Notes: generated from the letters alone by a model not told the origin. A stretch of DNA of 64,000 nt from Nitrospirota bacterium (GCA_963699545.1 CAVOUE010000006.1:256001-320000), one strand, 5' to 3'. Counted from the first letter of the stretch, positions 10,457 to 63,798 are shown. Numbers and translations are program-made.

Positions 10457-10509
10457 CGCATTACAGCCCGTTTTACCGGGCTGAAACCCTAATAGTAGGA
10501 GGTAAGAGA

Positions 10510-10836
10510 ATGAGCAGTGCAAGCATCAAGAAAAGTGCAGTTGAAATCCTTGAAGATGAGGATTTCAAATCGTTGCACAGTCAGAAGAATACCATCTCGG
10601 TTATTCTGACGATCCTGGAGCTGGTTCTCTATTTCGGGTTCATCGCCCTCATCGCCTTTAACAAGCCCTTCCTGGCCCAGAAACTGAACCCCGATGGCGC
10701 CACGACAATAGGCATACCGATAGCGGTGGGCACCATTCTCCTTTCATGGGTATTCACCGCTATCTACATCTTCTGGGCGAATACCAAGTATGACGTGCTG
10801 GTCAAAAAAGTCAAAGACAAACTAATAGGAGGTTAA
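10510..10836 (+). CDS. DUF485 (YjcH-like) small membrane protein
   Basis: Two TM helices, [10 protein letters not shown] motif, directly upstream of actP; RBS AGGAGG. Confidence 0.85.
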
Positions 10837-10838
10837 CG

Positions 10839-29226: not shown

Positions 29227-30626
29227 TGAAGGACGACGGCTATGAATATTCCGTTGTGAGGGGATTTGCCTTTTCAGCAGTCTTCTGGCTCATTATCGGT
29301 CTTGTGGTTGGTCTGCTCATCGCATTCCAGCTTGTGGCTCCCAAACTGAATCTTGCCCCGTGGCTGACCTATGGGAGACTCAGAGTGGTCCATACCAACG
29401 GCCTCGGTTTTGGCTTTGCTCTTGCCGGCATCTTTGCCTGCACCTATTTTATTCTTCAGAGGCTGACCCGGACGTCCATTGCCTTTCCGGGGCTGGCCAA
29501 GTTCCACCTTTATTTCTTCAATGTCACCATAGCCCTTGCGGCGTTGAGCCTATTCGCAGGGATGAATACGTCAAAAGAATACGCTGAGCTGGAGTGGCCC
29601 ATCGACATCCTCGTGGTGCTGATGTGGGTGGTCTTTGCCATCAACGTCTTTGCTACCCTCATAAAGAGAAAAGAGCAGCAGATGTATATCTCCCTCTGGT
29701 ATCTGGTCGCAATGACAGTGGCGGTGGCTGTCCTCTACATCCTCAATAACCTCGAGGTCCCGGTGAGCTGGTTCAAGTCATACTCGGTCTATGCAGGGGT
29801 CAATGACGCCAACGTGGAGTGGTGGTATGGTCATAACGTGGTCGGTTCGGTCTTCACCTTCCCCATTCTTGCCATGTTCTATTATTTCCTGCCGAAATCC
29901 ACAAATCTCCCAATCTACAGCCACCGATTATCCATCGTCGCATTCTGGTCCCTGGTGTTTGCCTACCTTTGGACGGGCGCCCACCATCTCGTCTATACAC
30001 CGGTACCGGACTGGATACAGACCACTGCCATTGCCTTCAGTATGTTCATGATCGCGCCGTCATGGGGTTCTGTCGTGAACGGGTATTACACAATGCGGGG
30101 GGACTGGGGACAGATGAGGTCCAATTATCTCGTCAAGTTCTTCATCTTCGGGATCACCTTCTACGGCCTCCAGACCATCCAGGGACCGACGCAGGCTTTG
30201 CGGTCCCTCTCTGCTGTCTTGCACTACACCGACTGGGTCCCGGGCCACGTGCACATGGGAACCATGGGCTGGGTGACCATGGTCATATCAGCGTCGTTTT
30301 ATTATATGATCCCCAAGCTCTATAACACAGAAATTTACAGCATAAAGCTCGCCAACACCCATTTCTGGCTCGTCCTCATCGGACAGTTGATCTTTTCCTT
30401 CACCATGTGGATTGCAGGAGTTCAGCAAGGCACCATGTGGAGGGCAACCAACCCTGATGGTTCACTGACCTATAGTTTCCTGGAGACTCTTGTGCCTCTC
30501 TATCCCTTCTGGGCCATGCGGGCATTGGGCGGGGTGATCTATTTCGTCGGAGTGCTGATATTCGCCTATAACCTTATCAAGACAGCCGGCAGGTCACGGG
30601 CTGCAGCCACTGCGGAAGGAGGATAA
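29227..30626 (+). CDS. ccoN: cbb3-type cytochrome c oxidase subunit I
   Basis: YGRLRVVHTN, KEYAELEWP, WWYGHN, WTGAHHL, GHVHMGTMGW. Confidence 0.95.
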
Positions 30627-30630
30627 TAAA

Positions 30631-31518
30631 ATGAATATCTATGGAAAACCAGTGATATTTGCGATAGCTGCCTTTGCGGTGATCGCAGTGGGCACCCTGG
30701 TTACTACGTTCATACCCCTTTTCGTACCTGCCACAGCTCCCGTGATCAAAGGCGTTAAACCGTACACCCCTGCAGAACTGGAGGGAAGGGATATTTACAT
30801 CCGGGAAGGATGCAACAACTGCCATACCCAGACCGTACGGCCTCTTCAGCCCGAAGTGGCCAGGTACGGAGATTATTCCAGGGCGGGAGAGTTCACCTAT
30901 GATAGACCCTTCCTCTGGGGTTCCAGGAGGACAGGTCCTGATCTGGCAAGGGTCGGCGGCAAATATCCCGACTCATGGCACTATCAGCACATGAAAGACC
31001 CGCAGAGCATGTTCCCGAAATCCAACATGCCTGCATATGCCTGGCTTGCTGAAAAACAACTGGATACGACGTACACCGAGCGGAAAATGAAGACCTTGGG
31101 ATTCCCGTATTTACCTGAGGAGATCCGGACCCTCCAGGGGAAAACTGAATTGGACGTTCTCGTGGCATATCTTCAGAAACTGGGCAGGGATCTGAAAGAG
31201 ATTGAAAAAGGGTCAGTGGTGAAGGTCGCCGAGGCCGCGGCGCCCGAGAAGAATCCCTTTGAACGAAAAGCCGATGCGATAAAGGAAGGGAAAGAGATCT
31301 TCGAGGCAAATTGCACGGCCTGCCACGGAAAGGATGCAAAGGGAGGCATCGGCCCCAACCTTCTGAAAAAGGATATGAAATACGGCCGGACCGACAGGGA
31401 CCTCTTTGCCTCAGTATCAAAGGGGAGGCCCGGCGGCATGCCTGACTGGGAAAAGACACTCGGCACAGAGAGGATATGGAAGGTGATCGCATATCTGCGG
31501 ACCATGGAAGAAAAGTGA
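30631..31518 (+). CDS. ccoO: cbb3 oxidase subunit II fused to an extra monoheme cytochrome c domain
   Basis: EGCNNCHTQ, WGSRRTGPDLAR, SNMPAY; second heme motif CTACH. Confidence 0.92.
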   Translation: MNIYGKPVIFAIAAFAVIAVGTLVTTFIPLFVPATAPVIKGVKPYTPAELEGRDIYIREGCNNCHTQTVRPLQPEVARYGDYSRAGEFTYDRPFLWGSRRTGPDLARVGGKYPDSWHYQHMKDPQSMFPKSNMPAYAWLAEKQLDTTYTERKMKTLGFPYLPEEIRTLQGKTELDVLVAYLQKLGRDLKEIEKGSVVKVAEAAAPEKNPFERKADAIKEGKEIFEANCTACHGKDAKGGIGPNLLKKDMKYGRTDRDLFASVSKGRPGGMPDWEKTLGTERIWKVIAYLRTMEEK

Positions 31519-31535
31519 CAGGAAAGGAGGTATCC

Positions 31536-32012
31536 ATGCAGGAAAACTACGATGACATAAAAGAACAGCATAATAAATTACCCCTCGGCATGTTCCTTTT
31601 CTTCATCGGGATGGTGGTGTGGGGTATCTATTACATAGCGAGCTATACGCCCGACTTCAGCGGATGGTCACAGAAAAAGGTGTACGATGAGCAGACCGCA
31701 AAGGAGAAGGCAGTTGCAAAACCGGTACTAATGGAAAACCCCTATGAAACGGATCCCAAGGCGATAGCAGAAGGCAAGGGGCTCTACGCATCCAATTGCG
31801 CTGCATGCCACGGAGAGAATCTCAAGGGCGGCGTTGGCACGGACCTCACAGACCATCTCAAATACGGGGAACAGGATGACAAGAAATTCGAATCTATTGC
31901 CAAAGGAAGACCCAACGGCATGCCCGGCTTTGACCGGCAACTGGGAAGGGACAGGATATGGAAAGTCCTCGCATATATTGACTCAGTGCGTGAATACGGA
32001 AAGAAGCCTTAA
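31536..32012 (+). CDS. ccoP: cbb3 oxidase subunit III-like (CcoP N-terminus + one heme c)
   Basis: RBS AAGGAGG; YDDIKEQHNKLP N-terminus, TM helix, CAACH, GMP. Confidence 0.8.
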   Translation: MQENYDDIKEQHNKLPLGMFLFFIGMVVWGIYYIASYTPDFSGWSQKKVYDEQTAKEKAVAKPVLMENPYETDPKAIAEGKGLYASNCAACHGENLKGGVGTDLTDHLKYGEQDDKKFESIAKGRPNGMPGFDRQLGRDRIWKVLAYIDSVREYGKKP

Positions 32013-32037
32013 GGGACCATGTTTTTTTTAAAGGAGA

Positions 32038-32071
32038 GCAAAAGGGAGCGGCACCTTCGCTCCCTTTTGCT
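32038..32071 (+). terminator. Stem-loop between ccoP and ccoG
   Basis: GCAAAAGGGAGCG-loop-CGCTCCCTTTTGC perfect stem. Confidence 0.6.
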
Positions 32072-33237
32072 TGCCCCTTGTGTGGAAGAAATATAGAAGC
32101 ATTGCCGCGATCATGCAGGCGCTCCTTATCCTTGGGCTGCCGTTTCTGAAGATAAACGGCCAGAGCGCCCTGAGATTTGACGTTCCGACGCTCAGACTCT
32201 TTTTTTTCGGAAAGGTCATATGGATGCAGGAATTCTTTGTTGTGCTCCTCGCCCTCCTTACCCTCATGCTCCTGTTCATCTTCATCACCAACCTCCTGGG
32301 AAGGGTCTGGTGCGGCTGGCTCTGCCCCCAGACAACCCTCCTCGATATAAGTCAGAGGTCCGGCCTGGTGAGGAGCAGGCTCAGCCTGATACTACCTCAT
32401 ATCATTTTAGTCCCATTGTCCATGGTCGTCTCCGCATCACTGATCTGGTACTTCGTCTCTCCTTACGACTTTTTCCGGGTCATCTTCGGAGAAACGAAAA
32501 GCCGAGTGGTCATCTGGTTCTTTATCATCATGTTTGCCATCGTCTATCTCGACCTGGAATTCCTCGGAAGGAAGTTCTGCAAGACCATCTGTCCCTATGC
32601 AAAGCTCCAGTCAACCCTCTTCGACGGGAACACCCTTGTGGTGGAATTCGACACGGACCGCGCGGACAGATGCATGGGATGCGACAAATGCGTGGCGGTA
32701 TGCCCGATCGGTATCGATATCAAAGACGGGCTTCAGATGGAATGTATCGCCTGCGCCCAATGCATTGATGCCTGCAGATCCATGACTGAACCAAGGGACA
32801 TGAAGTCCCTCATCAGGTACACTTTCGGAGAGGGGAAAGTGATCCGGCCGAAAGCGGTCATCCTCTTTGCGCTCTCTCTTATTTCCTTTTTGTTCCTGCT
32901 TTACAGGATCTCCTCTTTGCCTCCCTTTGAATTCGATGTGCTGCGGTCCGGAGAACTGTACCGCGTTACGGAAAAAGGTGAAATAATGAACATCTACGTG
33001 CTCAGCATAAAGAACATGAGTAACAGGGACATCGCCCTTGGCATAACCGTTGACAGACCTGATACAATTAAGGTAATCGGCCCGGCATCTGTATCGGCAA
33101 AGGCAGGTCAGATATACCATCAGAACATTGTTCTCCTCTCAGCAGGCCGGACGGCCAAGAGAGAGCCGGTTGTTTTTGCACTCAGGGATCCCGGGGGATA
33201 CGACCTAAAAAGACCAGGAACATTCTTCTCGCCATAA
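32071..33237 (+). CDS. ccoG: Cytochrome oxidase accessory 4Fe-4S membrane protein
   Basis: GRVWCGWLCPQT, CKTICPY, CMGCDKCVAVCP, CIACAQCIDAC. Confidence 0.9.
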   Translation: MPLVWKKYRSIAAIMQALLILGLPFLKINGQSALRFDVPTLRLFFFGKVIWMQEFFVVLLALLTLMLLFIFITNLLGRVWCGWLCPQTTLLDISQRSGLVRSRLSLILPHIILVPLSMVVSASLIWYFVSPYDFFRVIFGETKSRVVIWFFIIMFAIVYLDLEFLGRKFCKTICPYAKLQSTLFDGNTLVVEFDTDRADRCMGCDKCVAVCPIGIDIKDGLQMECIACAQCIDACRSMTEPRDMKSLIRYTFGEGKVIRPKAVILFALSLISFLFLLYRISSLPPFEFDVLRSGELYRVTEKGEIMNIYVLSIKNMSNRDIALGITVDRPDTIKVIGPASVSAKAGQIYHQNIVLLSAGRTAKREPVVFALRDPGGYDLKRPGTFFSP

Positions 33238-33249
33238 AGGAGGTGGGCA

Positions 33250-33390
33250 TTGAGCGGATGGGTTTATTTCGGTTTCACCGTAGCTCTTTTTGCGGTGCTC
33301 GTCGGGATCATCATCCATTACTACAACCCGAAAGAGAAAGAAAAGGTCGAAAAGCCGAAGTACAGGATATTTGACGAGGATGACAGATGA
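33250..33390 (+). CDS. ccoQ: cbb3 oxidase subunit IV-like small membrane protein (not in ORF track)
   Basis: RBS AAGGAGG + TTG; MSGWVYFGFTVALFAVLVGIIIHYYNPKEKEKVEKPKYRIFDEDDR*. Confidence 0.75.
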   Translation: MSGWVYFGFTVALFAVLVGIIIHYYNPKEKEKVEKPKYRIFDEDDR

Positions 33391-33844
33391 GAAGAAACTT
33401 GCTCATGGTTCTGGTGTCTTTCATGGGGATGCTGCTGCTCGGCAATTCTACGGACGCTGAGGATCCCCTGACTGCGATCCGCTCAGAGGCAGTTGCATAA
33501 AAAAGATCGGGGACAAAGAGATCATCTTCGGCATTTCCCCTGCACCGGTGAAGGCCATGGAAGAGCTCGTTTTCCGTCTCGTTATCAGGCGAAGTCCCCC
33601 CTCGCCCCCTTTAATAAAGGGGGGGGAGGAGGGGATGAAAGAGCTGCCGGAAGAAATTGCCGTCGATCTCAGCATGCCCGGCATGTATATGGGGGAAAAT
33701 CGGGTTATGCTCAAAAGAAGTCCTGACGGGACTTACTCAGGGAAAGGAGTGATCCCAAAATGCCGGAGCGGCAGAAGGCTCTGGAAGGCGACAGTGACTG
33801 TCCCTGGCGCCGGAGCAGCCGGCTTTCTCTTCAATGTTTACTGA
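33387..33844 (+). CDS. FixH/YtkA-like exported protein (frameshift near 33468)
   Basis: Signal peptide MRRNLLMVLVSF...; shifted frame DCDPLRGSC...DLSMPGMYMG...PKCRSG. Confidence 0.65.
33595..33635. repeat. Palindromic element in frame inside CDS (encodes SPPSPPLIKGGEEG)
   Basis: TCCCCCCTCGCCCCCTTTAATAAAGGGGGGGGAGGAGGGGA; similar to 44031..44074. Confidence 0.8.
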
Positions 33845-34523
33845 TTCGATCTTTGTCATTATGTTCACGTCCGGCCTTCTGGGAGGCTTCGGACACTGTA
33901 TCGGCATGTGTGGTCCTGTCGTGACAGCGTATTCTGTGCAGCTGGAGAAGAGGAGCGTCCTCCCCCAGGTTCTGTATTCTCTCGGCAGAATAACAACCTA
34001 CAGTATCCTCGGGGGCATCGTGGGACTGGCCGGTTCCTTTGTCTCTGTCGTCAGGCACATTGAGAGATTCCAGGTCATCACCCTTGCTGTCACAGGGCTC
34101 GCGATGATCGCTTTCGGCCTTGCTGCAGGGGGCTGGCTGCCATTCCTCAGGAGGAAACTCGAAGGTGCGGAGCGGGTCTCCTTCTGGGTTGGGAAGACGC
34201 TCCGGTACATCTCGGAAGGAAAGACGGCCGGGGTTTTTTATCCCATGGGGCTTATCATGGGCTTTATCCCCTGCGGTTTGCTCTACACGGCGCTCATCGC
34301 AGCCGCAGGAGCGGGGGTCAGCGCGACCGAACATGTGGAAGGCTTCCTTCGGGGAGCGCTCCTCCTGTTCCTCTTCGGCCTCGGGACAGCGCCGGCATTG
34401 GTGCTTCTTGGGCAGATCGTCGCGATGAAAGGAGAGCGGATAAGAAACAGACTGCATAAGGCCTCGGCGCTCCTCATGATCCTTATAGGGGTCATGTTCA
34501 TTTACAGGTCATTCAGCCAGTGA
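33834..34523 (+). CDS. DsbD_2/TauE-SafE family membrane protein (cbb3 maturation)
   Basis: HCIGMCGP and GFIPCGLLY motifs. Confidence 0.87.
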   Translation: MFTDSIFVIMFTSGLLGGFGHCIGMCGPVVTAYSVQLEKRSVLPQVLYSLGRITTYSILGGIVGLAGSFVSVVRHIERFQVITLAVTGLAMIAFGLAAGGWLPFLRRKLEGAERVSFWVGKTLRYISEGKTAGVFYPMGLIMGFIPCGLLYTALIAAAGAGVSATEHVEGFLRGALLLFLFGLGTAPALVLLGQIVAMKGERIRNRLHKASALLMILIGVMFIYRSFSQ

Positions 34524-34571
34524 GTGATCGGGTCATTCGCTCATGATGTGCAGGAAATGTGGTGTGATGCG

Positions 34572-36995
34572 ATGAACATGCTGAAGTGTGACCATTGCCT
34601 TCTGCCGTTCCGCGAAAGGGATGCGCTCCGGGCTACAGTGGAAAGTGCGGAGAAGGTGTTTTGTTGCAACGGATGCAGGGGGATATACCGGCTCATCCAC
34701 TCCGAGGGACTTGATGAGTTTTATGAGAAGAGGTCGGGGTGGGTACCGGGCCCGCCTGAAGAGGTCGAGCTTGCGACGGATGCGTTCGAGGACTCGGTCA
34801 GAGTGTCAGCCGGCGAAGCAGAGATAGACCTTGCGCTCTCGGGAATCCGGTGCACCTCCTGCATATGGCTTATCGAGCGTTTTCTCGGGAAGATCAAGGG
34901 AATTACTTATATCACCGTGAATTATGCCACGCACATGGCAAAGGTCAGATGGCTTCCTGAAACGATATCCCTCGATTCGGTCCTCAGGAGAATCGCAGCA
35001 CTTGGCTATACGCCGCGCCCCTGGGCGGCATCAGACCTCGAAGAACGACTGAAGGCCGAAAAAAGGGACCTTCTCATTCGACTGGGCACCGCTTCTTTTC
35101 TGACGATGCAGCTCATGCTCTTCACTACCGCACTCTATGCGGGGTATTTCCAGGGCATTGACCCGCTCTACCGGAAGGTCTTTGAGCTCATCGCCCTTGG
35201 GCTCTCCACCCCGGTAATCTTTTACTGCGGTTATCCCTTTCTGAAGAATACCATCAGGGGGCTAAGGAACCGCTCGCTGAACATGGACACTCTTGTTTTT
35301 ACCGGATCGTTCAGCGCGTATTTGTACAGCATCATAGCTATGGTGAAAGGAGGAGGGGTCTATTTTGATACGTCGGCCATGATCGTGACCCTGATACTCC
35401 TCGGAAGGTTCATCGAATCAGGAGCGAGGGCAAAAGCAACAGGGGCTGTCTCCTCCCTTATCGGTCGACAACCGAAAGAAGCAAGACTTATAAAGAAGTC
35501 CCCGGGTGAAACGAAAGGGCTGCCTGTGAACATCTCCCTATCTGCACTCGGGATAGGCGATCATATCGAGGTCATCCCCGGAGAAAAAATTCCCGTCGAT
35601 TGTGTGGTAGTTCAAGGTTCTTCAGAGATCGATGCATCAATGCTCACAGGAGAATCCATGCCTGTCAGAAAGATGGAGGGTGCGGAGGTCTTTGGAGGGA
35701 CCCTTAACCTCAATGGGAGGCTTATCCTTGAGGTCAGAAGGACAGGGAACGATACGGTGCTGGCCCAGATAACAAGGGCCGTGGAAGATGCCCAGGCAAG
35801 GAAGGCCCCTATCCAAAAGGTCGTTGACAGGGTCGTCGGCTGGTTCGTGCCTGCTATCATCGCTCTATCAATGGCCACCTTCGTCCTCTGGTTTGTCAGA
35901 GGGAGTACTATGACATCCTCTTTAATGAACGCGATCTCGGTCCTCGTCATCGCATGTCCGTGTGCTCTGGGGCTGGCCACACCGTTGGCGATCCTCATAG
36001 GTTCAACGCTCCTTTCTTCCAGGGGTATCCTCGTCAAGGGAGGAGATATTATCGAGACCCTTGCCCGGTCGGATTTTGTATGCTTTGACAAAACAGGGAC
36101 ACTGACCGCGGGAACACCCTCCTTAGTGGAGATAGTGAGCTACGGAACGGACAGAGAGTATTTGCACGTCCTTGCAGCATCCCTCGAGAAAGGCTCGGAA
36201 CACGCCGTTGCAAAGGCTTTATGGACAGGTGTGAGTGAATCTGATCTCTATCCCATTGAGGCTTTCAAAGCATCCCCGGGGATGGGTGTAGAAGGGACCA
36301 TGGAGGCCGGGCATCTCGTTGCCGGGAATATCACTTTCCTGCGGTCATTCCATGTGGTGATCACTGAGGCACAGATGAGGGATCTCCATTGCCTTTCGGC
36401 AAAGGGCAACACCGTAGTGGGCCTCGCTGTTGCCCAGGAACTCAAAGGGTGGTTTGTGATCTCTGATGACCTCAGACCTGATGCGCCTGACGTTGTGAAG
36501 GATTTGGAACAGCAGGGATGCAAAGTGAGCCTTCTCACCGGGGACCATCGGGCTGTTGCCGAAAAGATAGGGGAAAAGGCGGGCATCTCGATGATCGATG
36601 CAGAGGTCTTGCCGGTTCAAAAGGCGGAGAAGATCAGGGAGATGAAGGAAGCCGGCCACAGGGTGACGATGGTGGGCGACGGCATCAACGATGCTCCCGC
36701 GCTCACGGAGGCTGATGCAGGAGTTGCCATTGGCAGTGCAACGGATATAGCAATTGAAAGTGCTGATGTCGTGCTGATGCGGAATGACCTGAATCTAGTT
36801 CCTCATCTCATCAGGGCGTCGAGAAGAATTCTCTCTGTCATAAAGCAGAACCTCTTCTGGGCATTCTCTTATAACCTCATCGCAATTCCCCTGGCAGTCG
36901 CCGGGATGATCCACCCCATTATCTCCGCAGCCTTCATGGCCACAAGTTCTCTCCTTGTGGTGGGGAACTCGCTCAGACTGTACAGGAAAAAGTGA
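34572..36995 (+). CDS. ccoI: Heavy-metal (Cu) P1B-type ATPase
   Basis: CDHC...CCNGC N-terminus, CTSC, TGES, CPC, DKTGT, GDGINDAP, YN...MATSS. Confidence 0.92.
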   Translation: MNMLKCDHCLLPFRERDALRATVESAEKVFCCNGCRGIYRLIHSEGLDEFYEKRSGWVPGPPEEVELATDAFEDSVRVSAGEAEIDLALSGIRCTSCIWLIERFLGKIKGITYITVNYATHMAKVRWLPETISLDSVLRRIAALGYTPRPWAASDLEERLKAEKRDLLIRLGTASFLTMQLMLFTTALYAGYFQGIDPLYRKVFELIALGLSTPVIFYCGYPFLKNTIRGLRNRSLNMDTLVFTGSFSAYLYSIIAMVKGGGVYFDTSAMIVTLILLGRFIESGARAKATGAVSSLIGRQPKEARLIKKSPGETKGLPVNISLSALGIGDHIEVIPGEKIPVDCVVVQGSSEIDASMLTGESMPVRKMEGAEVFGGTLNLNGRLILEVRRTGNDTVLAQITRAVEDAQARKAPIQKVVDRVVGWFVPAIIALSMATFVLWFVRGSTMTSSLMNAISVLVIACPCALGLATPLAILIGSTLLSSRGILVKGGDIIETLARSDFVCFDKTGTLTAGTPSLVEIVSYGTDREYLHVLAASLEKGSEHAVAKALWTGVSESDLYPIEAFKASPGMGVEGTMEAGHLVAGNITFLRSFHVVITEAQMRDLHCLSAKGNTVVGLAVAQELKGWFVISDDLRPDAPDVVKDLEQQGCKVSLLTGDHRAVAEKIGEKAGISMIDAEVLPVQKAEKIREMKEAGHRVTMVGDGINDAPALTEADAGVAIGSATDIAIESADVVLMRNDLNLVPHLIRASRRILSVIKQNLFWAFSYNLIAIPLAVAGMIHPIISAAFMATSSLLVVGNSLRLYRKK

Positions 36996-37035
36996 CCAGG
37001 GGCGCTTTGAGAAGTGGGGTGTCGCGTACACCGAC
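36463..37035 (+). repeat. Direct repeat copy 1 (ccoI 3' end + 40 bp downstream)
   Basis: Colinear with 38949..39521, no indels, ~34 substitutions counted by eye. Confidence 0.93.
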
Positions 37036-37087
37036 AGTCGACACTTTCAGAAAACCGAAACTAGTGAGGATTCCCGTAGATAATGTG

Positions 37088-37150
37088 CAGTAACGTGGAG
37101 CTAAGGGGCTGCGCGCTTTTGCGCAGTCCCGCTTGAGCGTAGGGTTAGGG
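37088..37150 (-). other. Integron attC site, cassette 1
   Basis: Minus strand CCCTAAC-CCTAC-GCTCAAGC-GGGACTGCGCAAAAGCGCGCAGCCC-CTTAGC-TCCAC-GTTACTG; R'' is complementary to the cassette start GTTAGGGGC. Confidence 0.88.
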
Positions 37151-37194
37151 GCGTACAAGCCAACCTGCTTTTGCGCAGACCCGAAGCTAAAAAC

Positions 37195-37788
37195 TCAGCA
37201 AGCACGATGATAACTTCCGGGGTTATTCGGTTTGCTCAATGTTCCGAATAGCGCGGCGTTCTGTTTATGGTAAGCGAATACTGCTCGGTCAATTTCCCTC
37301 AAGCTCCATTTCGGGTAACTGCCTCGTATCGCCAAAATAGCCTCCATGAATGATGGGTATTGATTGATACCAGTGGACTTATGCTGGATGTAGCCAAAAT
37401 GCCTAAGTACGTCTACAGTTCTACGGTCAATAATTGGGAAGAACGACGGATAAAGAAACTGGAGAAATGTTGATGCTACGGGTGCGCCGATACCAGGCAA
37501 CTCGACAAGCAGTTTCATCCTTTCCATACCAGAAGCCGCATGGCACTTTCTTATCGCGTTTGTGTATATCTCGAAATTGATCCAATCAATGCGCCCCTTA
37601 ACTCTGGCCGATTTCCAGTTCAGGATTTCAGTGAATGTCTGTTTTGTCACAGAGCCGTCGGCGCTCATCTCTAAGCTGACTCTGTTTAACAGCCTCTTGT
37701 ACTCTGACTCATCATCTTCAGTTTCATCGTACCGGGGATGCCAAGCCTGAATGAACTGGTCGTCAACTCTATTTGGCATGGCGCACAT
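37195..37788 (-). CDS. Cassette-borne HhH-GPD-like (DNA glycosylase-like) protein
   Basis: LVELPGIGAPVASTFL helix-hairpin-helix and PIIDRR motif; lower GC than flanks; lies between attI-like site and attC. Confidence 0.7.
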   Translation of the reverse strand: MCAMPNRVDDQFIQAWHPRYDETEDDESEYKRLLNRVSLEMSADGSVTKQTFTEILNWKSARVKGRIDWINFEIYTNAIRKCHAASGMERMKLLVELPGIGAPVASTFLQFLYPSFFPIIDRRTVDVLRHFGYIQHKSTGINQYPSFMEAILAIRGSYPKWSLREIDRAVFAYHKQNAALFGTLSKPNNPGSYHRAC

Positions 37789-37826
37789 ATTTGCTTTCCT
37801 TTTTACCTGATAATTCCACGATAAGC

Positions 37827-37860
37827 CCCTAACCAGTTATTAGATAGTTTCTCGATAACA
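37827..37860 (-). other. attI-like site preceding cassette 1
   Basis: Minus strand ...TATCTAATAACTG-GTTAGGG; no attC hairpin upstream of this GTTRRR core. Confidence 0.55.
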
Positions 37861-38000
37861 CCGGAATTTTCCAGTCTCCGCAATCTGCCATAGACATCAC
37901 GCTCAGCGTAACTGCTTGATTTATCGTGCTATCATGATTGGATAACATTACTTTTGTGATGTTAGCGAGTTTTCTGTCTAACATATGAATGAGCATGTCA

Positions 38001-38933
38001 TGGGGTCAGGTCTTGTGTCTTGCATTTCAACTATCTCCCCCTATTTACCACCCGACTTACAGTAGCATAATGTATCCCAAGATAATCAGCCACCTCTTTT
38101 TGGCTGTACCCGTACCTCTCGACTGACTCTTTGATAGCTTTCTCCGCTGACTCATTATCTGCTGTTTCTTGCTTCAATAATTTGGCAAGGCCAGGTCTTC
38201 CGATATATCTCTGACTCTTCGGTATTTCTTTTATTCGTTCCCGTCCCTTTGCGTATCCTATCAGGTTTTCGATAAATTCATCATCCCCTATAATGCTTTG
38301 TCCCTTCACCTCATTCCATATCTTCTTGGCGTCTATCCCTGCATCAACAAACTCACGGTATCTTTTCTCTGCCGGTCCCCTCTTCGAGCCAAACTGTCCC
38401 AGTATCCAGTCTTTTGTGAGGCAGGGATGAGGTTTTTCCATTCCCGCAGTTGCCCGGTAGCTGCTCCATTGCCACTTTTCAGGTCTTTTCACTGCCTTTG
38501 CCCTGACAGGATTCAATACTACATACCGGCTGACTTCAAGCAAATAGCTGTCTTTTTGTACCAGTATCGCCTTATATCTCCCTTGGAATATATGTCCCAC
38601 TCGATGATGCCTTCGGTTGAATTGTTGTGTATAGACTCCGTTGAGCTGCCTCATCCCTTTCGACAGGTTGCCGTCAGGAGTTTCGATGACGAGATGATAA
38701 TGGTTATTCATGAGGCAGTAGGCATGGCATAGCCAATTATATCGTTTATTTACTTTGTAAAGGGCTTCTATGAATACTTTTCGATCTTCATCGTCTTTGC
38801 AGATAGGTTTTCGGGCATTCCCACGCGAGGTTACATGATACAGCGCACCGTCGTATTCAATCCTTAATGGTCTTGCCATATCAGCATCCTATCAGAAAAA
38901 GCCGCCAATTGCAAGAAACAAGACCTGACCCCA
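38001..38933 (-). mobile_element. Inverted-repeat-flanked RAYT/Y1 transposase element
   Basis: IRs TGGGGTCAGGTCTTGTGTCTTGCATTT (38001..38027) and AATTGCAAGAAACAAGACCTGACCCCA (38907..38933), 25/27 match. Confidence 0.85.
38031..38879 (-). CDS. REP-associated tyrosine (Y1 HUH) transposase with C-terminal HTH
   Basis: MARPLR, YHVTSRGN, YCLMNNHYHL (HUH), YVVLNPVRA, WSSY; HTH SQKEVADYLGIHYATVSR. Confidence 0.92.
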   Translation of the reverse strand: MARPLRIEYDGALYHVTSRGNARKPICKDDEDRKVFIEALYKVNKRYNWLCHAYCLMNNHYHLVIETPDGNLSKGMRQLNGVYTQQFNRRHHRVGHIFQGRYKAILVQKDSYLLEVSRYVVLNPVRAKAVKRPEKWQWSSYRATAGMEKPHPCLTKDWILGQFGSKRGPAEKRYREFVDAGIDAKKIWNEVKGQSIIGDDEFIENLIGYAKGRERIKEIPKSQRYIGRPGLAKLLKQETADNESAEKAIKESVERYGYSQKEVADYLGIHYATVSRVVNRGR

Positions 38934-38948
38934 ATGACCGTCGTTGAA

Positions 38949-39521
38949 CTGATGACCTCAGACCTGATGCGCCTGACGTTGTGAAGGATTTGGAACAGCA
39001 GGGATGCAAAGTGAGCCTTCTCACCGGGGACCATCGGGCTGTTGCCGAAAAGATAGGGAAACGAGCGGGTATTTCGATAATCGATGCAGAGGTCTTGCCG
39101 GTTCAGAAGGCGAAGAAGATCAGGGAACTCAAAGAATCAGGCCACAGGGTGACGATGGTGGGCGACGGCATCAACGATGCTCCCGCGCTCACGGAGGCTG
39201 ATGCAGGAGTTGCCATCGGCAGTGCAACGGATATAGCAATTGAAAGTGCCGATGTCGTGCTGATGCGGAATGACCTGAGTCTAGTTCCTCATCTCATCAG
39301 GACATCAAGAAGAATACTCTCTGTCATAAAGCAGAACCTCTTCTGGGCATTCTCTTATAACCTCATCGCCATTCCCCTGGCAGTCGCCGGGATGATCCAT
39401 CCCATCATCTCGGCGGCCTTCATGGCCACAAGTTCTCTCCTTGTGGTGGGAAACTCGCTCAGGCTCTACAGGAAAAAGTAACCAGGGTCGCCTTGAGAAG
39501 TGGGGTGTCGCTTACACCGAC
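38949..39521 (+). pseudogene. Duplicated 3' fragment of ccoI (direct repeat copy 2)
   Basis: Frame-intact C-terminal ~177 codons ending TAA 39481; lacks the 5' part of the gene. Confidence 0.9.
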
Positions 39522-39563
39522 GACTCCTCAAGGTCAAGGAAGGTCGAGGACTAAAGATTTACG

Positions 39564-39632
39564 GTAGAACGCTCGGGCTGACAGGTGCGCGGGCGCTTTT
39601 TCCGCGCATCCTCGTCCAGCCCGTTGTTAGGC
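39564..39632 (-). other. Integron attC site, cassette 2
   Basis: Minus strand GCCTAAC-AACGGGCTGGAC-GAGGATGCGCGGAAAAAGCGCCCGCGCACCT-GTCAGCCCGAGC-GTTCTAC; R'' is complementary to the cassette start GTTAGGCC. Confidence 0.88.
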
Positions 39633-39661
39633 CGTAATGCAGAAATGTTCTCTTGGTAATA

Positions 39662-40288
39662 CTACGCACGCACAAGGACATTAGCCATTGCATAATCGGA
39701 CAACTGAAGTAATGGCTTTCCAAAGTTACCACCAATGATCTCAAACAGGGGATAATTTGGAGCATCGAGTGCCTTTCCAATCCATTTCCCGAATCGCTCA
39801 AGTTCACTCCCGCGTTCTTTCACGAGTGCAGCCCGATATTCCTCCAAACGATTGAGCGGATCAAGGTGATCCCCGAACCCAAATGTTGGCTTCGGATCAA
39901 TTGACACAAGCGTTATTTCACGAAGATTCTTCATTCCGGCATTACGACAAAGTTCCATGAGTGCTGTGGCTAATGCGCCATCAAATAGTCCAATAAGCCT
40001 CTGGCTTGGTCGTTTACCAAACCATTTCTTTTCTGTAAGGTGTTTTGGTGACTGCAAGCTGGCAAAGAATGTGCAAAAACACAAGCACTCGAAACGCAGC
40101 CTGAGGCGCATTTCGTCAGTGATAGGCTTTTCCGATATATTGAGTCTACGAGCTTCATCACCACGACAGAATTGAGTGTATGTCTCCAAGATGGATTCGA
40201 CGATTTTTTGGTCAAGCAGGAAATGGTCAATGCCCACAAGAACATTTACAGCAAGACGATCTAATGTTTCTATCGAGGGCAATGACAT
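39662..40288 (-). CDS. Cassette-borne hypothetical protein
   Basis: 208-aa ORF filling the cassette 39570..40316; no motif recognised. Confidence 0.75.
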   Translation of the reverse strand: MSLPSIETLDRLAVNVLVGIDHFLLDQKIVESILETYTQFCRGDEARRLNISEKPITDEMRLRLRFECLCFCTFFASLQSPKHLTEKKWFGKRPSQRLIGLFDGALATALMELCRNAGMKNLREITLVSIDPKPTFGFGDHLDPLNRLEEYRAALVKERGSELERFGKWIGKALDAPNYPLFEIIGGNFGKPLLQLSDYAMANVLVRA

Positions 40289-40310
40289 ATATTTATTCCC
40301 TTTGTTGTTG

Positions 40311-40345
40311 GCCTAACATTGTTTTTTATGCCGACTATTCAGTTT
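40311..40345 (-). other. attI-like site preceding cassette 2
   Basis: Minus strand GGCATAAAAAACAAT-GTTAGGC resembles attI1 (CCCTAAAACAAA-GTTRRRY). Confidence 0.65.
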
Positions 40346-40351
40346 TTGTGA

Positions 40352-40380
40352 ATTATAGGATTAGTCCGGGCTACTGTCAA
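40352..40380 (-). promoter_or_regulatory. Consensus sigma-70 promoter pointing into cassette 2 (Pc-like)
   Basis: Minus strand TTGACA-GTAGCCCGGACTAATCC (17 nt)-TATAAT. Confidence 0.85.
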
Positions 40381-40633
40381 TATAATTATTCCCCCCCGCG
40401 TAAGAACTGGACGGATAACAAAGGATAATTACTGCGATTGTAATAGTTATAACGCGTCCACATAATAAAGACCTAATTTTATCTTTACTATTATACGGAG
40501 GTTCTCACAGAGAATAAAAAAATATGTCCAGTGTTGATTTTCGAGAGTACTTGATTATCCCACCTTGCTCTCAGCGGTGTCGGTTCCAGGAAGGACTTCT
40601 TTTCCGATCAAGGAACATTTCCCAGGCAAAAAA

Positions 40634-40894
40634 TTATCGGTAGATATCCTTTCGATGGCGCACTTTGAGGATCGTTATCATTTCCTCTGGAATATCTACT
40701 ACATACATAATTCGATAATCCCCGAAACGGTATCGAAATAAACCGGCCAGATTTTCCTTGAGAGGCTTTCCGAGCTTAAGCGGATCCTGGACCAGATATC
40801 TTGTTATGCGGTGGATGACCTTCAGTGCGAGCTCTTTGTCCAGGTCCCGGAGGTCCTTCCAGACATCCTCGTGCCATCGAACCTTATAGGCCAA
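40634..40894 (-). CDS. relE: RelE/ParE-family toxin
   Basis: GKPLKENLAGLFRYRFGDYRI...VRHRKDIY. Confidence 0.9.
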   Translation of the reverse strand: MAYKVRWHEDVWKDLRDLDKELALKVIHRITRYLVQDPLKLGKPLKENLAGLFRYRFGDYRIMYVVDIPEEMITILKVRHRKDIYR

Positions 40895-41093
40895 GCCGCT
40901 TTTCCAGTTCCTTTGTGTTCAGATATTTTGCGTTCTTATCGTTCAGCCGATCGAGAGCAAGATACGCATCTTCGTATTCTTCAAGGTACTCACTAAGCGC
41001 CTCCCTCATATAGTAGCTTTTCGGCCTCCTGGTCTTTTCTGAGAGCCTATTAAGCCTGCTCTCTAAATCAACAGGCAGTTTCAGGGTTAACAT
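40884..41093 (-). CDS. Ribbon-helix-helix antitoxin
   Basis: LNRLSEKTRRPKSYYMREAL; overlaps the toxin start. Confidence 0.87.
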   Translation of the reverse strand: MLTLKLPVDLESRLNRLSEKTRRPKSYYMREALSEYLEEYEDAYLALDRLNDKNAKYLNTKELEKRLGL

Positions 41094-41273
41094 GACACCT
41101 CCTACTTATGTATTACTGTTATTACCTATAATAACAGTTGAACAGAAGAAAGTCCACAGGGGCCTACTTGCATGGCAAGAAGAAGCTATTCATGTAAACT
41201 TACTAATCCGCACCCTTCGTGACTTCCACTCGAAGCTAGACTTCAGGAAGAACATACTACAATTTCAGAACGT

Positions 41274-42005
41274 TTACGAACCTGAACGCAGAGATTCCTG
41301 GCCATCCCTCCAGCGTATCCACTTCAGTGAACTTCTGCGGATGAGTTCAGGCCATATCTGTGAAGGTTCCTTTTCGAAGATGGTCTCTGCATCTGCGTTC
41401 ATGACATGCCAGCCTCCCAGGGCCACCTCCCGGTCCAGCTGCCGGGGCGACCATCCTGCATAGCCTGCAAATACATGGAATCCCCTTCCGCTCTCTCCCT
41501 TGTCGACCATCCGCCGAAGGAGCTTCGCGCTTCCGCTGACATAGATATCCTTAAACACGTGGCCGGAATCTTCGGGCTTTTGAGCAGATCGAACGAGCAT
41601 GAGCATCTGATCGGTCCTGACCGGACCTCCGAAGTAGAGGGGGTCCATCCGCTTCTTCAGTCCCTCCATATCCGGAAACGCCCTTGACAGCCTGGCATCA
41701 GAAGGACGATTGATCACCAGCCCGACGGCGCCCTGGTCGCTATATTCCACCAGGAATATAACTGTCTCCAGGAACCTCGGGTCCTTCATTTCCCTCCCCG
41801 CAACAAGAAACTTCCCTCTGGAGAGGTTCGCATCCGGCTCGGGGAGAAAAGGCGAAACAGGCTCGACAGGTATTCTGGCCGCAAGAAGCCTGGTATCGCC
41901 GGGAAGAACTGGCCCGGCTGTCATCGCAAGAAGTGTGATGAGAAGTGTCGCGGTCAGCAGGAAGACAGCAGGACAAGAAAAGACCGGGTGTTCCGATTTG
42001 TTCAT
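41274..42005 (-). CDS. YqgE/AlgH (DUF179) protein with N-terminal signal/TM extension
   Basis: GAVGLVINRP, YFGGPV, GYAGWSPRQLDRE. Confidence 0.88.
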   Translation of the reverse strand: MNKSEHPVFSCPAVFLLTATLLITLLAMTAGPVLPGDTRLLAARIPVEPVSPFLPEPDANLSRGKFLVAGREMKDPRFLETVIFLVEYSDQGAVGLVINRPSDARLSRAFPDMEGLKKRMDPLYFGGPVRTDQMLMLVRSAQKPEDSGHVFKDIYVSGSAKLLRRMVDKGESGRGFHVFAGYAGWSPRQLDREVALGGWHVMNADAETIFEKEPSQIWPELIRRSSLKWIRWRDGQESLRSGS

Positions 42006-42327
42006 TTGATGGCGCTTTCAGTGGACATTCTCACAGGAGTACCGTGACGAAATAAAAGAAGGTGGCTCTCGCTTTTTTCTTCTTTGCCCGTTATCTCTCC
42101 GAGACTAATCGTCTCACGACTGAATTTCTTACAGCTCATGCCGCACGAGATACGGAACAAAGAGAGCAAGACCACCACCTTTACCGCCTCTCTTCTTGAT
42201 TTCAGCGTACTCCTTTTCATGGTGGCTGTCAAGCATTAATTTCGATCCCGGTGAGTGAGGGGATGAGCACAATGAGCACAAGATGACAGGTGCACTAACC
42301 GCCGAAAAGAGTATAATGAGATCAGCC

Positions 42328-42480
42328 ATGTGGACAATCTTTCTCCTCATCGTTCTCACCGTGGTATTCGGGATAGCGGCATGGCTCTTCTTCCTGTGGG
42401 CGGTGAAGAGCGGCCAGTACGATGACCCCGAGAGGCCGAAGCACCGGATGCTGGATGACGAAGACAGCGGAAAGAAGTAA
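42328..42480 (+). CDS. ccoS: cbb3 oxidase assembly protein
   Basis: FLWAVKSGQYDDPE...RMLDD motif. Confidence 0.88.
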   Translation: MWTIFLLIVLTVVFGIAAWLFFLWAVKSGQYDDPERPKHRMLDDEDSGKK

Positions 42481-42527
42481 GCCGTTCATTGAAAAAAAAG
42501 CCTCTGTGCTTTAAACTAAATCTCACC

Positions 42528-43736
42528 ATGCAGAAACTGATAACGCCGCTGATACAGAAAAATAATTCAAGGATCGTCCTTGTTGTACTGGATGGGTTGG
42601 GCGGTCTTCCTCTGAACGGCAGGACGGAGCTCGAGACTGCCAGGACGCCGAATCTCGATGCCCTTGCAGCCCGTTCAGCATGCGGACTCCATGTCCCTGT
42701 GGCCTACGGGATAACGCCGGGAAGCGGTCCGGGACACCTCGGCCTCTTCGGATACGACCCCGTGGAATGCCGGATCGGAAGAGGGGTGCTGGAGGCCCTT
42801 GGTCTCGGCCTTGAGGTGAAAAGAACGGATATTGCGGTAAGGGGTAACTACGCCTCCATGAGAGATGGAGTGATCACCGACAGGAGAGCGGGGAGGATCC
42901 CGACGGAGCAGAGCAAGAGACTCACCGAAAAACTCCAGAGGGAAATACCACGAATTGACGATGCGGAGTTCATCTTTGCCCCTGGCATGGAGCACAGGTT
43001 TGCTGTGGTGATGAGGTTCCCTCAGCCCCTCACACCGGAAGCAGCAATGATCAGCGATACCGATCCCCAGAAAGAGGGAAAGCCTCCGCTCGATGCACTG
43101 GCCCTCTCCAGGGATGCAGAGGCAGCGGCAGGGGTTGCCTGCCGTTTCGTGGGTGAGGCGCAGAAGGTGCTGAGAAACGAGGCCAAGGCAAATCACCTCT
43201 TGCTGAGGGGGTTTTCAGGCATGCCCCATGTCCCGACCTTCGAAGAGGCCTTTGGACTCAACGCCGTTGCCATCGCTACGTATCCCATGTACAGGGGTCT
43301 TGCAAAGATCGTGGGGATGGATACGCCTGCCCTTGAGGGAAGCGTTGAAGATGAAATACGGTTCCTGAAAAAGAACTTCGGCGAATATGACTTTTTCTTC
43401 CTGCACGTAAAAAAGGTTGACTCCTATGGCGAAGACGGCAATTTCCCGGGGAAGGCTGCGCGGATCGAGGAATTTGATGCACTCCTGCCGGAGATACTCT
43501 CCTTGAACCCTGACGTCCTGGTCATCACCGGGGACCATTCGACCCCTTCAGTCATGAAGGGCCACAGCTGGCACCCTGTGCCCCTGCTCCTGAGTTCCCC
43601 CTACGTCCTCGGGGGGTTATGCGCCTCGTTCTCGGAGAGGGAATGCGTGCGGGGCGAACTGGGCATCTTCCCTGCCGTGAACATCCTCCCCCTTGCCCTC
43701 GCCAATGCAGGAAGACTGAAAAAGTTCGGCGCATGA
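42528..43736 (+). CDS. apgM: 2,3-bisphosphoglycerate-independent phosphoglycerate mutase (ApgM type)
   Basis: VLDGLGG, TPGSGPGHL, DRRAGRI, TGDHSTP, HSWHPVP. Confidence 0.92.
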   Translation: MQKLITPLIQKNNSRIVLVVLDGLGGLPLNGRTELETARTPNLDALAARSACGLHVPVAYGITPGSGPGHLGLFGYDPVECRIGRGVLEALGLGLEVKRTDIAVRGNYASMRDGVITDRRAGRIPTEQSKRLTEKLQREIPRIDDAEFIFAPGMEHRFAVVMRFPQPLTPEAAMISDTDPQKEGKPPLDALALSRDAEAAAGVACRFVGEAQKVLRNEAKANHLLLRGFSGMPHVPTFEEAFGLNAVAIATYPMYRGLAKIVGMDTPALEGSVEDEIRFLKKNFGEYDFFFLHVKKVDSYGEDGNFPGKAARIEEFDALLPEILSLNPDVLVITGDHSTPSVMKGHSWHPVPLLLSSPYVLGGLCASFSERECVRGELGIFPAVNILPLALANAGRLKKFGA

Positions 43737-45181
43737 TCGATACCCACTGTCATCTCGATATGTTCCCCTGCGATGCTGAACCTTCAGAAAAAGGAGCTGG
43801 ATTGACGGGAGACGGCAGGGAGGCTGTCATCCGCAGGGCATCAGAGGCGGGTCTCGAAGCCATCATAACGATAGGGTCTGACTTTCAGAGCAATCTTACC
43901 AATAATGCGATCACAGATGAGTATGAAATGGTATACGCTTCAGTCGGTATCCATCCTCACGATGCGAAAGATTTTACTGACGATGTGTACAAGCAGTTGA
44001 AAGAATGGGCAACGCCACGGATCACGCCTTCACCCCCCCATCCCCCCCTTATCAAGGGGGGGCAACGGGGGGGTAAGATTGTCGCAATCGGAGAGACCGG
44101 CCTGGATTACTATTATAATCATTCGCCCCGGGATACACAGAGGGAGGTCTTCAGAAAGCACCTTGAACTTGCGGGAAAGACCGGGCTTCCCGCCGTTATC
44201 CACAGCCGTGACGCAAAGGAGGATACGCTGGAGATATTGGGGGAATCAGGCATCGCAAAAGGAGTTCTGCACTGTTTCTCCGGGGACATGGATATGGCGG
44301 AGAGGGTCATGGAGATGGGACTCTACATTTCCTTTGCCGGGCCCGTCACCTTTAAGAACGCAGGAAAACTCTCCGAGATAGCGAAGGAAATACCCGACGA
44401 CTACCTTCTCATCGAGACGGACGCCCCCTACCTTGCGCCTGAGCCGATGAGAGGGAGAAGAAATGAGCCGTCCTATATCATTCACACGGTGAAGCGTCTC
44501 GCTGAGTTAAGGGGAGTGAGCGGGGAGGATATCGTGAGAATCACGACCCTCAATGCTCGCAGGCTCTTCGGGATAGGCGGGCTGCCTTCGCAAGGGGAGA
44601 TCGCATACAGGATCAGGGACAGCCTCTATCTGAATATCACGAACCGGTGCACGAACAGATGCTCCTTCTGTGTGAGATTCCATTCCGATTATGTCAAGGG
44701 ACATAACCTCAGGCTTCCTGAGGAACCGACGGAAGAAGTATTAAAAAGAGCTATCGGCGATCCGACCCGCTATCGGGAGGTCGTGTTCTGCGGATACGGC
44801 GAACCCCTCCTGAGGCTTGAAACCGTCAGGAATCTTTCCCGATGGATAAAGGAAATGGGTGGCTTCGTACGGATCAACACGAACGGTCACGGGAACCTGA
44901 TCCACGGACGGAACATCCTTCCGGAACTCGAGGGTATCGTGGATTCCGTCTCTGTGAGTCTCGATGCCCATGATGAGGAGTCATATAACAGGATCTGTGC
45001 TCCGGCATTCGAGAACGCATTCCGGGAAGTCGTTTCATTCATCAGGGACGCGAAGGCATGTATCCCCCACGTTCAGGCCACCGTGGTAGAAGTGGAAGGT
45101 GTGGATCTGGAGAGATGCAGAAAGATAACGGACGAGCTGGGAGTGACGCTCAGGGTACGGAAGCTGGATGTTGTTGGGTAG
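43733..45181 (+). CDS. TatD nuclease fused to TatD-associated radical SAM domain
   Basis: DTHCHLD, GETGLDY, HCFSG, ETDAPYL; then YLNITNRCTNRCSFC and VFCGYGEP. Confidence 0.9.
   Translation: MIDTHCHLDMFPCDAEPSEKGAGLTGDGREAVIRRASEAGLEAIITIGSDFQSNLTNNAITDEYEMVYASVGIHPHDAKDFTDDVYKQLKEWATPRITPSPPHPPLIKGGQRGGKIVAIGETGLDYYYNHSPRDTQREVFRKHLELAGKTGLPAVIHSRDAKEDTLEILGESGIAKGVLHCFSGDMDMAERVMEMGLYISFAGPVTFKNAGKLSEIAKEIPDDYLLIETDAPYLAPEPMRGRRNEPSYIIHTVKRLAELRGVSGEDIVRITTLNARRLFGIGGLPSQGEIAYRIRDSLYLNITNRCTNRCSFCVRFHSDYVKGHNLRLPEEPTEEVLKRAIGDPTRYREVVFCGYGEPLLRLETVRNLSRWIKEMGGFVRINTNGHGNLIHGRNILPELEGIVDSVSVSLDAHDEESYNRICAPAFENAFREVVSFIRDAKACIPHVQATVVEVEGVDLERCRKITDELGVTLRVRKLDVVG
44031..44074. repeat. Palindromic element in frame inside tatD (encodes SPPHPPLIKGGQRGG)
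   Basis: ACCCCCCC-AT-CCCCCCCTT-ATC-AAGGGGGGG-CAAC-GGGGGGGT hairpin. Confidence 0.85.
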
Positions 45182-45254
45182 CCCGCCGCGGGATGGTCAG
45201 CGTATCCTGTTCATCCATAAGAACGGCCTTGCTCATTCCTCTCGTCCCGGACAG

Positions 45255-63582: not shown

Positions 63583-63798
63583 GGCCTGACTTAGTTGACA
63601 ACGCCTGAGATATTCAGAACCGCATGGGGCAGACTGGTGGAGATTCGAGAGTTCAAGCGCAAACACTCAAATGTTGACTTCACCGACTACCTGATAGGTA
63701 TTGCAAATCGAAACTCATGTTGATTTACAGGAGGAATACACACAAAAAAGGGCGAGATATTTAGCCTCGCCCTCAATACTATCATCAGATAGTCTATT

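Follow-up and report, generated by a model that had tools for sequence, protein, structure and literature searches.

Putative integron heads of two attI types without an integrase, in tandem beside ccoI in a Nitrospirota genome

We analysed a 64,000-nucleotide stretch of the genome of a Nitrospirota bacterium (GCA_963699545.1, C6:256001-320000; "the window" hereafter). The stretch contains an island with two tandem units, each made up of a ccoI 3' end, an attC site, a single gene cassette and an upstream region that we call the head. The genome is a metagenome-assembled genome (MAG) of 3.04 Mb in 13 contigs, 87% complete and with 5% contamination, and the contig carrying the island has a length of 470 kb. 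Our reading, to which we assign a probability of about 0.6, is that the two heads are integrase-less integron heads that differ in attI type, that their cassettes were inserted by an integron integrase (IntI), and that the tandem arose by the joining of two diverged lineages.

Tandem units and cassette borders

The original prediction had described a ccoI 3' end, an attC site, one open reading frame (ORF) and an attI-type site, occurring twice in tandem. A repeat search, blastn and direct reading of the sequence all recovered this arrangement. Copy 1 of the direct repeat (36463-37035) consists of the last 533 nt of ccoI and 40 nt downstream; copy 2 (38949-39521, plus strand) is a ccoI 3' fragment with 40 nt, in which the last 177 codons are open and the 5' part of the gene is missing. 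The copies are 94.25% identical over 574 alignment columns (blastn), and in both the likeness begins abruptly at CTGATGACC and stops at ...ACACCGAC. Downstream of each copy follow, on the minus strand, about 55 nt of sequence differing from unit to unit, a palindrome of attC layout, one ORF and an AT-rich region.

Both palindromes have the layout AAC, 3-5 nt, stem with extra-helical bases, 4-5 nt, GTT, and form the imperfect palindrome of R''(..AAC), L'', L' and R'(GTT..), about 55-140 nt long, by which attC sites are recognised. On the minus strand, attC1 (37088-37152) comprises the R'' box GCCCCTAAC, a stem with extra-helical bases and the R' box GTTACTG, and attC2 (39564-39633) the R'' box GGCCTAAC, a stem with an extra-helical G and the R' box GTTCTAC. 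The predicted fold of attC2 (-24.9 kcal/mol, z -4.87) was not equalled by any of 200 shuffled sequences. The sites scored 11.4 and 14.4, respectively, in a layout scanner of our own, which looks for AAC, 3-6 nt, a bulged stem, 3-6 nt and GTT, counts every site on both strands and uses the reversed, uncomplemented genome as control. Genome-wide the scanner gave 20 matches versus 4 in the control at a score of at least 12, and 10 versus 0 at a score of at least 14; in eight intI-bearing loci of other genomes, the positive control, it gave 12 matches versus 0. By this scanner, attC-like sites number only about five in the whole genome, all of them isolated, and no array was seen. The scanner also picked a palindromic element of about 125-133 nt in two copies (C3:9928-10060 and C6:202331-202455) and a near-perfect palindrome of 134 nt (C9:3785-3918), whose contexts are not attC-like.

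The cassette borders were read directly in the sequence, and the expectation that each cassette starts with the complement of its own attC R'' box was borne out for both. Cassette 1 (37094-37832, minus strand, ORF 37195-37788) starts with GTTAGGGGC (37833->37825), the exact 9-nt complement of its R'' at 37152->37144. Cassette 2 (39570-40316, minus strand, ORF 39662-40288) starts with GTTAGGCC (40317->40310), the exact 8-nt complement of its R'' at 39633->39626. The chance of an 8-mer match of this kind is about 0.02 per locus. Each cassette would have been put in by an integron integrase through attI x attC recombination.

The stretch of about 45-55 bp between the ccoI end and the attC site had been considered unique. 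With a nhmmer profile we found that it belongs to a dispersed repeat of about 70 nt, here called R-55, which runs from the GTT of the attC R' box to a GTCGGTG end. The copy at unit 1 (37020-37094, minus strand, E 2.6e-14) has the GTT of the attC1 R' box as its first bases and ...GTCGGTG, corresponding to ACACCGAC, as its last; the copy at unit 2 (39506-39570, minus strand, E 2.1e-10) is diverged, and a further copy lies in the window at 63672-63737 (minus strand). The joint ...ACACCGAC at 37035 and 39521, which had been proposed as the border between host and insert, cannot be kept as such since it falls inside R-55. The profile, built from five of them, yielded 17 matches in the genome at E<0.01, and R-55 abuts four of the genome's five attC-like sites. 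In other genomes it follows head 1 (G003, G007), and in several metagenome contigs it follows head 2. The simplest reading would be that R-55 is the segment distal to the crossover in an empty platform and is displaced behind the cassette upon insertion. R-55 also exists independently, as copies after plain terminators show. At least 11 more places carry it (e.g., C3:508303-508365, C6:166424-166478, and C10:62148-62208), and a terminator-like hairpin, or else a conserved stretch of about 100 nt, often lies upstream of it.

Two attI-type regions and the missing integrase

Judged by their sequences, both heads are attI-type sites, of two different kinds, because homologous regions adjoin integron-integrase genes in other genomes and conservation ends after the GTT. 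A predicted attI thus stands at the head of the cassette in each unit, and the proposal of integron heads, that is attI plus first cassette, without intI is supported by the adjacency of the head motifs to divergent intI genes elsewhere.

Head 2 (minus strand, 40317 to about 40555) ends ...CGGCATAAAAAACAAT|GTT. It carries a putative Pc-type promoter, TTGACA-17-TATAAT, with 12/12 consensus positions (40380->40352), which is aimed at cassette 2 and should transcribe it; the -10 hexamer ends 35 nt ahead of the crossover. The sequence is unrelated to that of head 1. Among 121 genomes sampled from the order, four others keep head 2 up to the GTT. The 19-nt end motif of head 2 matched 112 metagenome stretches, of which 80 are listed, and the following counts refer to these 80. 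A promoter of the form TTGAC-N17-19-TANAAT lies within 90 nt in 33, the cassette start matches R'' over at least 8 nt in 20, and a divergent integrase gene adjoins the motif in six (L101, L117, L120, L143, L151, and L152), the integrase of L117 scoring 424.2 bits on TIGR02249 (cut-off 265).

The left end of head 2 varies between genomes (40490, 40512, 40555). At 40524-40556 on the plus strand we noted a tentative remnant of an intI start, MSSVDFREYLI..., whose DFxEYL motif also occurs in the N-terminus of the attI-2-linked IntI of L120 (MLGDFAEYL). The evidence for this remnant is weak, the same 75-nt piece being found in G003 without head 2. That piece, 40525-40599 of the window, corresponds to G003:C61:17034-17109, where the neighbouring sequence is the R-55 of a head-1 unit.

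Head 1 (37833-37985, minus strand) ends ...GAGAAACTATCTAATAACTG|GTT, and its promoter side is cut off by an element of the RAYT (REP-associated tyrosine transposase) type. It is part of a conserved platform of about 290 bp, whose genomic copies each carry a different cassette. Three further copies are found in the genome, at C11:58302-58454 (95% identity), C5:302055-302207 (89%) and C3:421601-421755 (88%), with start/R'' matches of 8, 7 and 6 nt. In all copies the likeness stops immediately after ...TAATAACTGGTT and is followed by a different ORF and attC. Full-length copies contain the promoter-like sequence TTGACT-18-TATAAC; no such site was found in the head 1 of the window. Scanning one genome per species for exact copies of the 23-nt end motif returned 15 contigs, most of which carry the label Nitrospirota or Thermodesulfovibrionales. 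Three of these contigs, L085, L090 and L092, have a divergent integrase gene whose start is about 150 nt away from the crossover, and the integrase of L092 reaches 380.7 bits on TIGR02249. When 15 head-1 loci of other genomes were searched within 1.5 kb, the start/R'' match amounted to 8-9 nt in five, to 7 nt in one, and was lacking in nine.

Other identities of head 1 were considered and rejected. As a structured RNA leader it gave only eight pairs in RNAalifold, none with compensatory changes (13 copies from 10 genomes, four of them from this genome), the single-sequence fold having a z of -2.4; as a long attC it was not flagged by the layout scanner. Rfam scans gave only a chance miRNA match in 30000-46000 (E<=1) and only tRNAs in the loci of the C5, C11 and C3 copies (L009-L011). 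A tyrosine recombinase 3 kb from the C5 copy is not intI; it is XerC-like and lies in a gid-xerC-hslVU cluster.

In agreement with the earlier statement that the window has no intI, no TIGR02249 match lies inside it, and a search of the genome, which is 87% complete, likewise found no integron integrase: the best of eight TIGR02249 matches reached 70.8 bits. The locus therefore lacks the intI beside the cassettes that marks a complete integron; its attC sites without an integron integrase nearby are those of the integrase-less attC clusters (CALIN) and single cassettes (SALIN). Elsewhere in the order, 27 of the 121 genomes encode an integron integrase above the cut-off. Head 1 is present in 13 of the 121, this genome included; the 12 others comprise four with an integrase above the cut-off, one with a fragment and seven with none at E<=1e-40. 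At the loci themselves an integrase is absent from 12 of the 15 head-1 contigs and from 15 of the 18 listed head-2 loci that are well flanked, i.e., in which a promoter or R'' match is accompanied by at least 1.5 kb of upstream sequence. Head 1 and its counterpart in G003, a genome of another genus, share 83% identity, compared with only 65% for the CcoI proteins. Because the distribution is patchy and mostly integrase-less and head 1 is more conserved than CcoI between genera, the heads appear to spread horizontally and to persist without intI.

The RAYT element (38001-38933, minus strand) has 27-nt inverted repeats and an ORF (38031-38879) for a protein of 282 aa with a Y1 transposase domain and a C-terminal helix-turn-helix (HTH). 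The protein fits the family models by its Y1 HUH transposase domain (Pfam Y1_Tnp 5.4e-14; NCBIfam REP_Tyr_transpos, NF047646, 93 bits, cut-off 80). The element occupies the place of the promoter half of the head-1 platform and ends 15 nt before ccoI copy 2. Because it removed the promoter side of head 1, cassette 1 would be readable only from upstream, e.g., by read-through from the RAYT gene. Homologues of RAYT are found within 2.5 kb of heads in L068, L081, L085, L092, L094 and L095, some of them inside attC sites; none was found in the 80 listed head-2 loci. The recurrence of RAYT genes beside heads, together with a repeat in G072 that abuts an R'' box, suggests that RAYT-type elements target integron recombination sites. 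In G072 this repeat, which is the one that forms the inverted repeat of the window's RAYT, directly follows the R'' box of an attC site, and a RAYT-type gene lies about 900 nt past the head-1 copy (L068).

Origin of the tandem and rival explanations

The whole stretch of about 4.3 kb between the housekeeping genes ccoI and algH is an inserted island, because the two genes face each other directly in relatives. In the window they are convergent, their stop codons are 4.28 kb apart, and the order within the island is unit 1, RAYT element, ccoI fragment, unit 2 and a ParE/RelB pair. Six relatives were compared, none of them a near strain (the closest CcoI is only 70% identical). The genes face each other at a distance of 0.1-0.9 kb in three of the six; in two algH lies outside the 2.6-6.9 kb examined, and in one the locus is too short. 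Cassettes varying at this junction, as had been expected, were not seen: the scanner found no attC-like site in the ccoI-downstream loci of these six relatives.

Between the two ccoI ends 26 codons differ, 18 synonymously and 8 non-synonymously. A drifting local duplicate should show mostly non-synonymous changes, and the two ends therefore appear to have accumulated their differences in separate lineages, each within a working gene. This codon pattern together with the two attI types argues that two lineage versions were joined. One side would have been joined through ccoI homology, and the other, next to the RAYT element, without homology; at 38934-38949 the RAYT repeat and 15 nt pass into mid-ccoI without shared sequence. 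Such one-sided homology with a non-homologous joint would be expected from homology-facilitated illegitimate recombination following DNA uptake. The suggested role of ccoI as homology anchor thus stood in part, in that the synonymous-rich divergence fits joining by homology whereas the joint of copy 2 is non-homologous; repeated capture of heads at one position by way of this anchor is plausible. Any further exchange of cassettes would need IntI in trans, because the assembled genome encodes no integrase.

Several observations weigh against this reading. The fold energy of attC1 is unexceptional (z -1.25, equalled by 23 of 200 shuffles), and the start/R'' match of the C3 copy of head 1 has only 6 nt. 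Neither head 1 nor R-55 was found at any of 18 intI loci of relatives, and only 3 of the 18 well-flanked head-2 loci have an integrase. Seven of the 12 other head-1 genomes are without intI, so a resident integrase acting in trans would not be the rule. The tandem is known from the assembly alone, a MAG with 5% contamination, and how the heads multiply and move has no account in the reading.

We considered several alternatives for the origin of the units. The tandem could be an assembly artefact, in which the haplotypes of two co-occurring strains were strung together and which exists in no cell. The completeness and contamination of the MAG would allow this, a divergence of 5-6%, mostly synonymous, is what two strains would show, and reading frames split elsewhere, such as the xerC-like gene in two ORFs, hint at an error-prone assembly. 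However, a mis-join in the assembly graph normally needs overlap and the joint of copy 2 is without shared sequence; moreover, the contig spans 470 kb in an assembly of only 13 contigs. We regard the artefact as rather unlikely. It is less probable still that the island is one decayed resident integron, which lost intI, kept a short array and duplicated the ccoI 3' end locally. The possible intI start at 40524, the differing left ends of head 2, as independent deletions would give, and the toxin-antitoxin pair adjoining the head are in line with such decay, but it leaves unexplained why the heads are of two attI types and why the codon differences are unlike those of a drifting local duplicate. 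In addition, the relatives examined have no cargo here, and neither head was found in two genomes of the same genus (G001, 86% complete, and G002, 93% complete), a search without a positive control in these genomes. The split frames concern a XerC-like gene (L009 11082-11974, on C5), uvrB (L010 9297-11337, on C11) and an aminopeptidase-like gene (L013 1-980, at the start of C6); they may be indel errors of the assembly, and this bears on the trust in it.

The cassettes could also be lone SALIN cassettes inserted at ordinary GWT (attG) sites, with upstream regions that are not attI. Lone attC sites without intI are common, and insertion at attG has been shown experimentally (cited sections of bioRxiv 10.1101/2022.09.11.507474). 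The genome, with its few isolated attC-like sites and no array, would agree. But in many genomes the conservation of both upstream regions extends as far as the GTT, and both are homologous to intI-adjacent regions; this reading is already contradicted and we consider it very improbable. Movement of the whole unit (head, cassette, attC and R-55) as a mobile element, driven by RAYT-type single-strand transposases or by a recombination event at the GTCGGTG terminus of R-55, has a small chance in our estimation. It would account for the conservation of head 1 between genera beyond that of CcoI and for its patchy distribution, for the joint occurrence of head and R-55 in G003, in G007 and in several of the metagenome contigs, for the RAYT homologues close to heads in the six loci named above, and for the divergence of the two window units exactly at GTCGGTG. 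On the other hand, terminal repeats or target duplications were not seen at the units; the 5' part of the 290-bp platform, tried as a flanking direct repeat, resembles R-55 no better than shuffled sequences do; RAYT is missing from the 80 listed head-2 loci; and the RAYT repeat has only three copies in the genome. Going beyond the two joined heads that we prefer, one might speculate, with considerable reserve, on a distributed integron in the order: short integrase-less pads of attI and promoter, with R-55 at their close, would spread horizontally, stand singly at numerous chromosomal positions, hold one expressed cassette each, be loaded in trans by integrases that have their genes elsewhere or are merely transient, and recombine between strains by way of the flanking host genes. 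If so, the orphan head and not the intI-linked array would be the common form of both attI types.

Relation to known elements, cargo and neighbouring genes

The units belong to a known kind, that of integron remnants without integrase. With CALIN and SALIN they share an ORF and an attC with no intI nearby, the attC sites being a pair 2.5 kb apart here and isolated ones elsewhere in the genome. Whether two attC sites make one CALIN is decided in IntegronFinder by a distance threshold of 4 kb. The architecture had been thought undescribed; CALIN and SALIN are, however, already in print, with a trans-acting integrase proposed for them (cited sections of PMC4889954 and bioRxiv 10.1101/2022.09.11.507474). 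In contrast to these, the cassettes described here still sit at a recognisable attI, one with a consensus promoter, and the heads are conserved multi-copy families; moreover, SALINs are explained by insertion at attG, not attI (as treated in the cited sections of bioRxiv 10.1101/2022.09.11.507474). Heads of attI type would go unrecorded in surveys because IntegronFinder, as its description states (cited sections of PMC4889954), records attI for classes 1-3 only and by exact match.

A complete integron is resembled in the putative attI core, the G|TT crossover, the promoter towards the cassette and the R''-complementary borders; homologous platforms with intI occur in L085, L090, L092 and L117. 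Unlike a complete integron, the locus and the assembled genome have no intI, and each of the five heads scattered in the genome carries one cassette instead of an array. Clinical class 1 integrons with a truncated intI1 persist without a working integrase. Likewise, attI pieces of delta-attI cassettes persist or move with no working integrase adjacent (PMC12901181). Both share with our units heads or attI pieces without a working integrase beside them, but their setting is plasmids and transposons in clinical bacteria and their cargo is resistance genes, whereas the units studied here are chromosomal, from an uncultured environmental lineage, with unassigned cargo and unrelated attI types. The 282-aa protein and its inverted repeats on both sides are RAYT-like. 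Classical RAYT hosts carry many repetitive extragenic palindromes (REPs). Here, in contrast, only three repeat copies (up to 3 mismatches) are present in the genome, two of which flank the gene, and the element differs further in its C-terminal HTH and in being found inside heads or attC sites in several genomes.

A search of the open-access literature found no account of conserved multi-copy orphan attI-promoter heads, which is weak evidence. New are the attI identity of both heads, the multi-copy head family whose distal segment is conserved, and a tandem that involves the duplicated end of a host gene. Integron surveys log integrases and attC sites, and attI for three clinical classes only; at this locus two environmental attI types are recognisable from sequence, and most of the copies examined are without integrase. 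If this holds more widely, part of the CALIN and SALIN would be not stray cassettes but landing pads with a promoter, each keeping a single cassette expressed, and models of cassette expression and exchange in environmental bacteria would change. For the genome alone, it is an ordinary accessory island with unassigned cargo.

The proteins of cassettes 1 and 2 (197 and 208 aa) belong to no Pfam family, and PADLOC gave no match for either. Their homologues (73 and 58, respectively) are all unnamed, 40-92% identical, and lie on contigs labelled as several phyla, which fits mobile cassettes. The structural model of cassette 1 (pLDDT 91.6) is all-helical; its best Foldseek matches, which are weak, fall on 8-oxoguanine glycosylases of archaea and bacteria (3knt: E 0.02, prob 1.0, TM 0.45), and the NCBIfam model for N-glycosylase/DNA lyase gave E 0.0068, far below its cut-off. 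A product like an 8-oxoguanine glycosylase is thus a lead only, suggested by the predicted model. The model of cassette 2 (pLDDT 91.8) had no Foldseek match at E<=0.001; its best VIA-align Z of 6.5, among helical proteins, is uninformative. The cargo of the C3 copy of head 1 was noted as well (L011, C3:413000-429000, positions 8795-11853): a two-transmembrane SLATT_4 protein and a HAD hydrolase, then a TIR-domain protein that matches the PADLOC models PDC-S35 and Pycsar-TIR. This cargo is likely an anti-phage module at or beside an integron head.

The left flank of the island is an intact gene for a P1B-type heavy-metal ATPase of 823 aa (34524-36995, plus strand; Pfam E1-E2_ATPase 1.4e-55, ATPase-cat_bd 1e-14, HMA; NCBIfam ATPase-IB_hvy 581.5 bits). 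It has the N-terminal metal-binding domain (ATPase-cat_bd) and the ccoG-type neighbourhood expected of CcoI/FixI, and because it comes after FixG-like and DsbD_2 genes, ccoI is a fair name for it. The right flank is algH (DUF179; 41274-42005, minus strand, Pfam 4.2e-38). In the right part of the island lies a type II pair of a ParE/RelE-type toxin and a RelB-like antitoxin (40634-41093, minus strand; Pfam ParE_toxin 5.2e-12; NCBIfam antitoxin_RelB_like 67.5 bits, cut-off 50). With its own promoter-like site (41156->41128) the pair makes up a discrete module of 523 bp (40634-41156 of the window), and a second module, 84% identical, is located at C13:9450-9973 on a contig of 16 kb.

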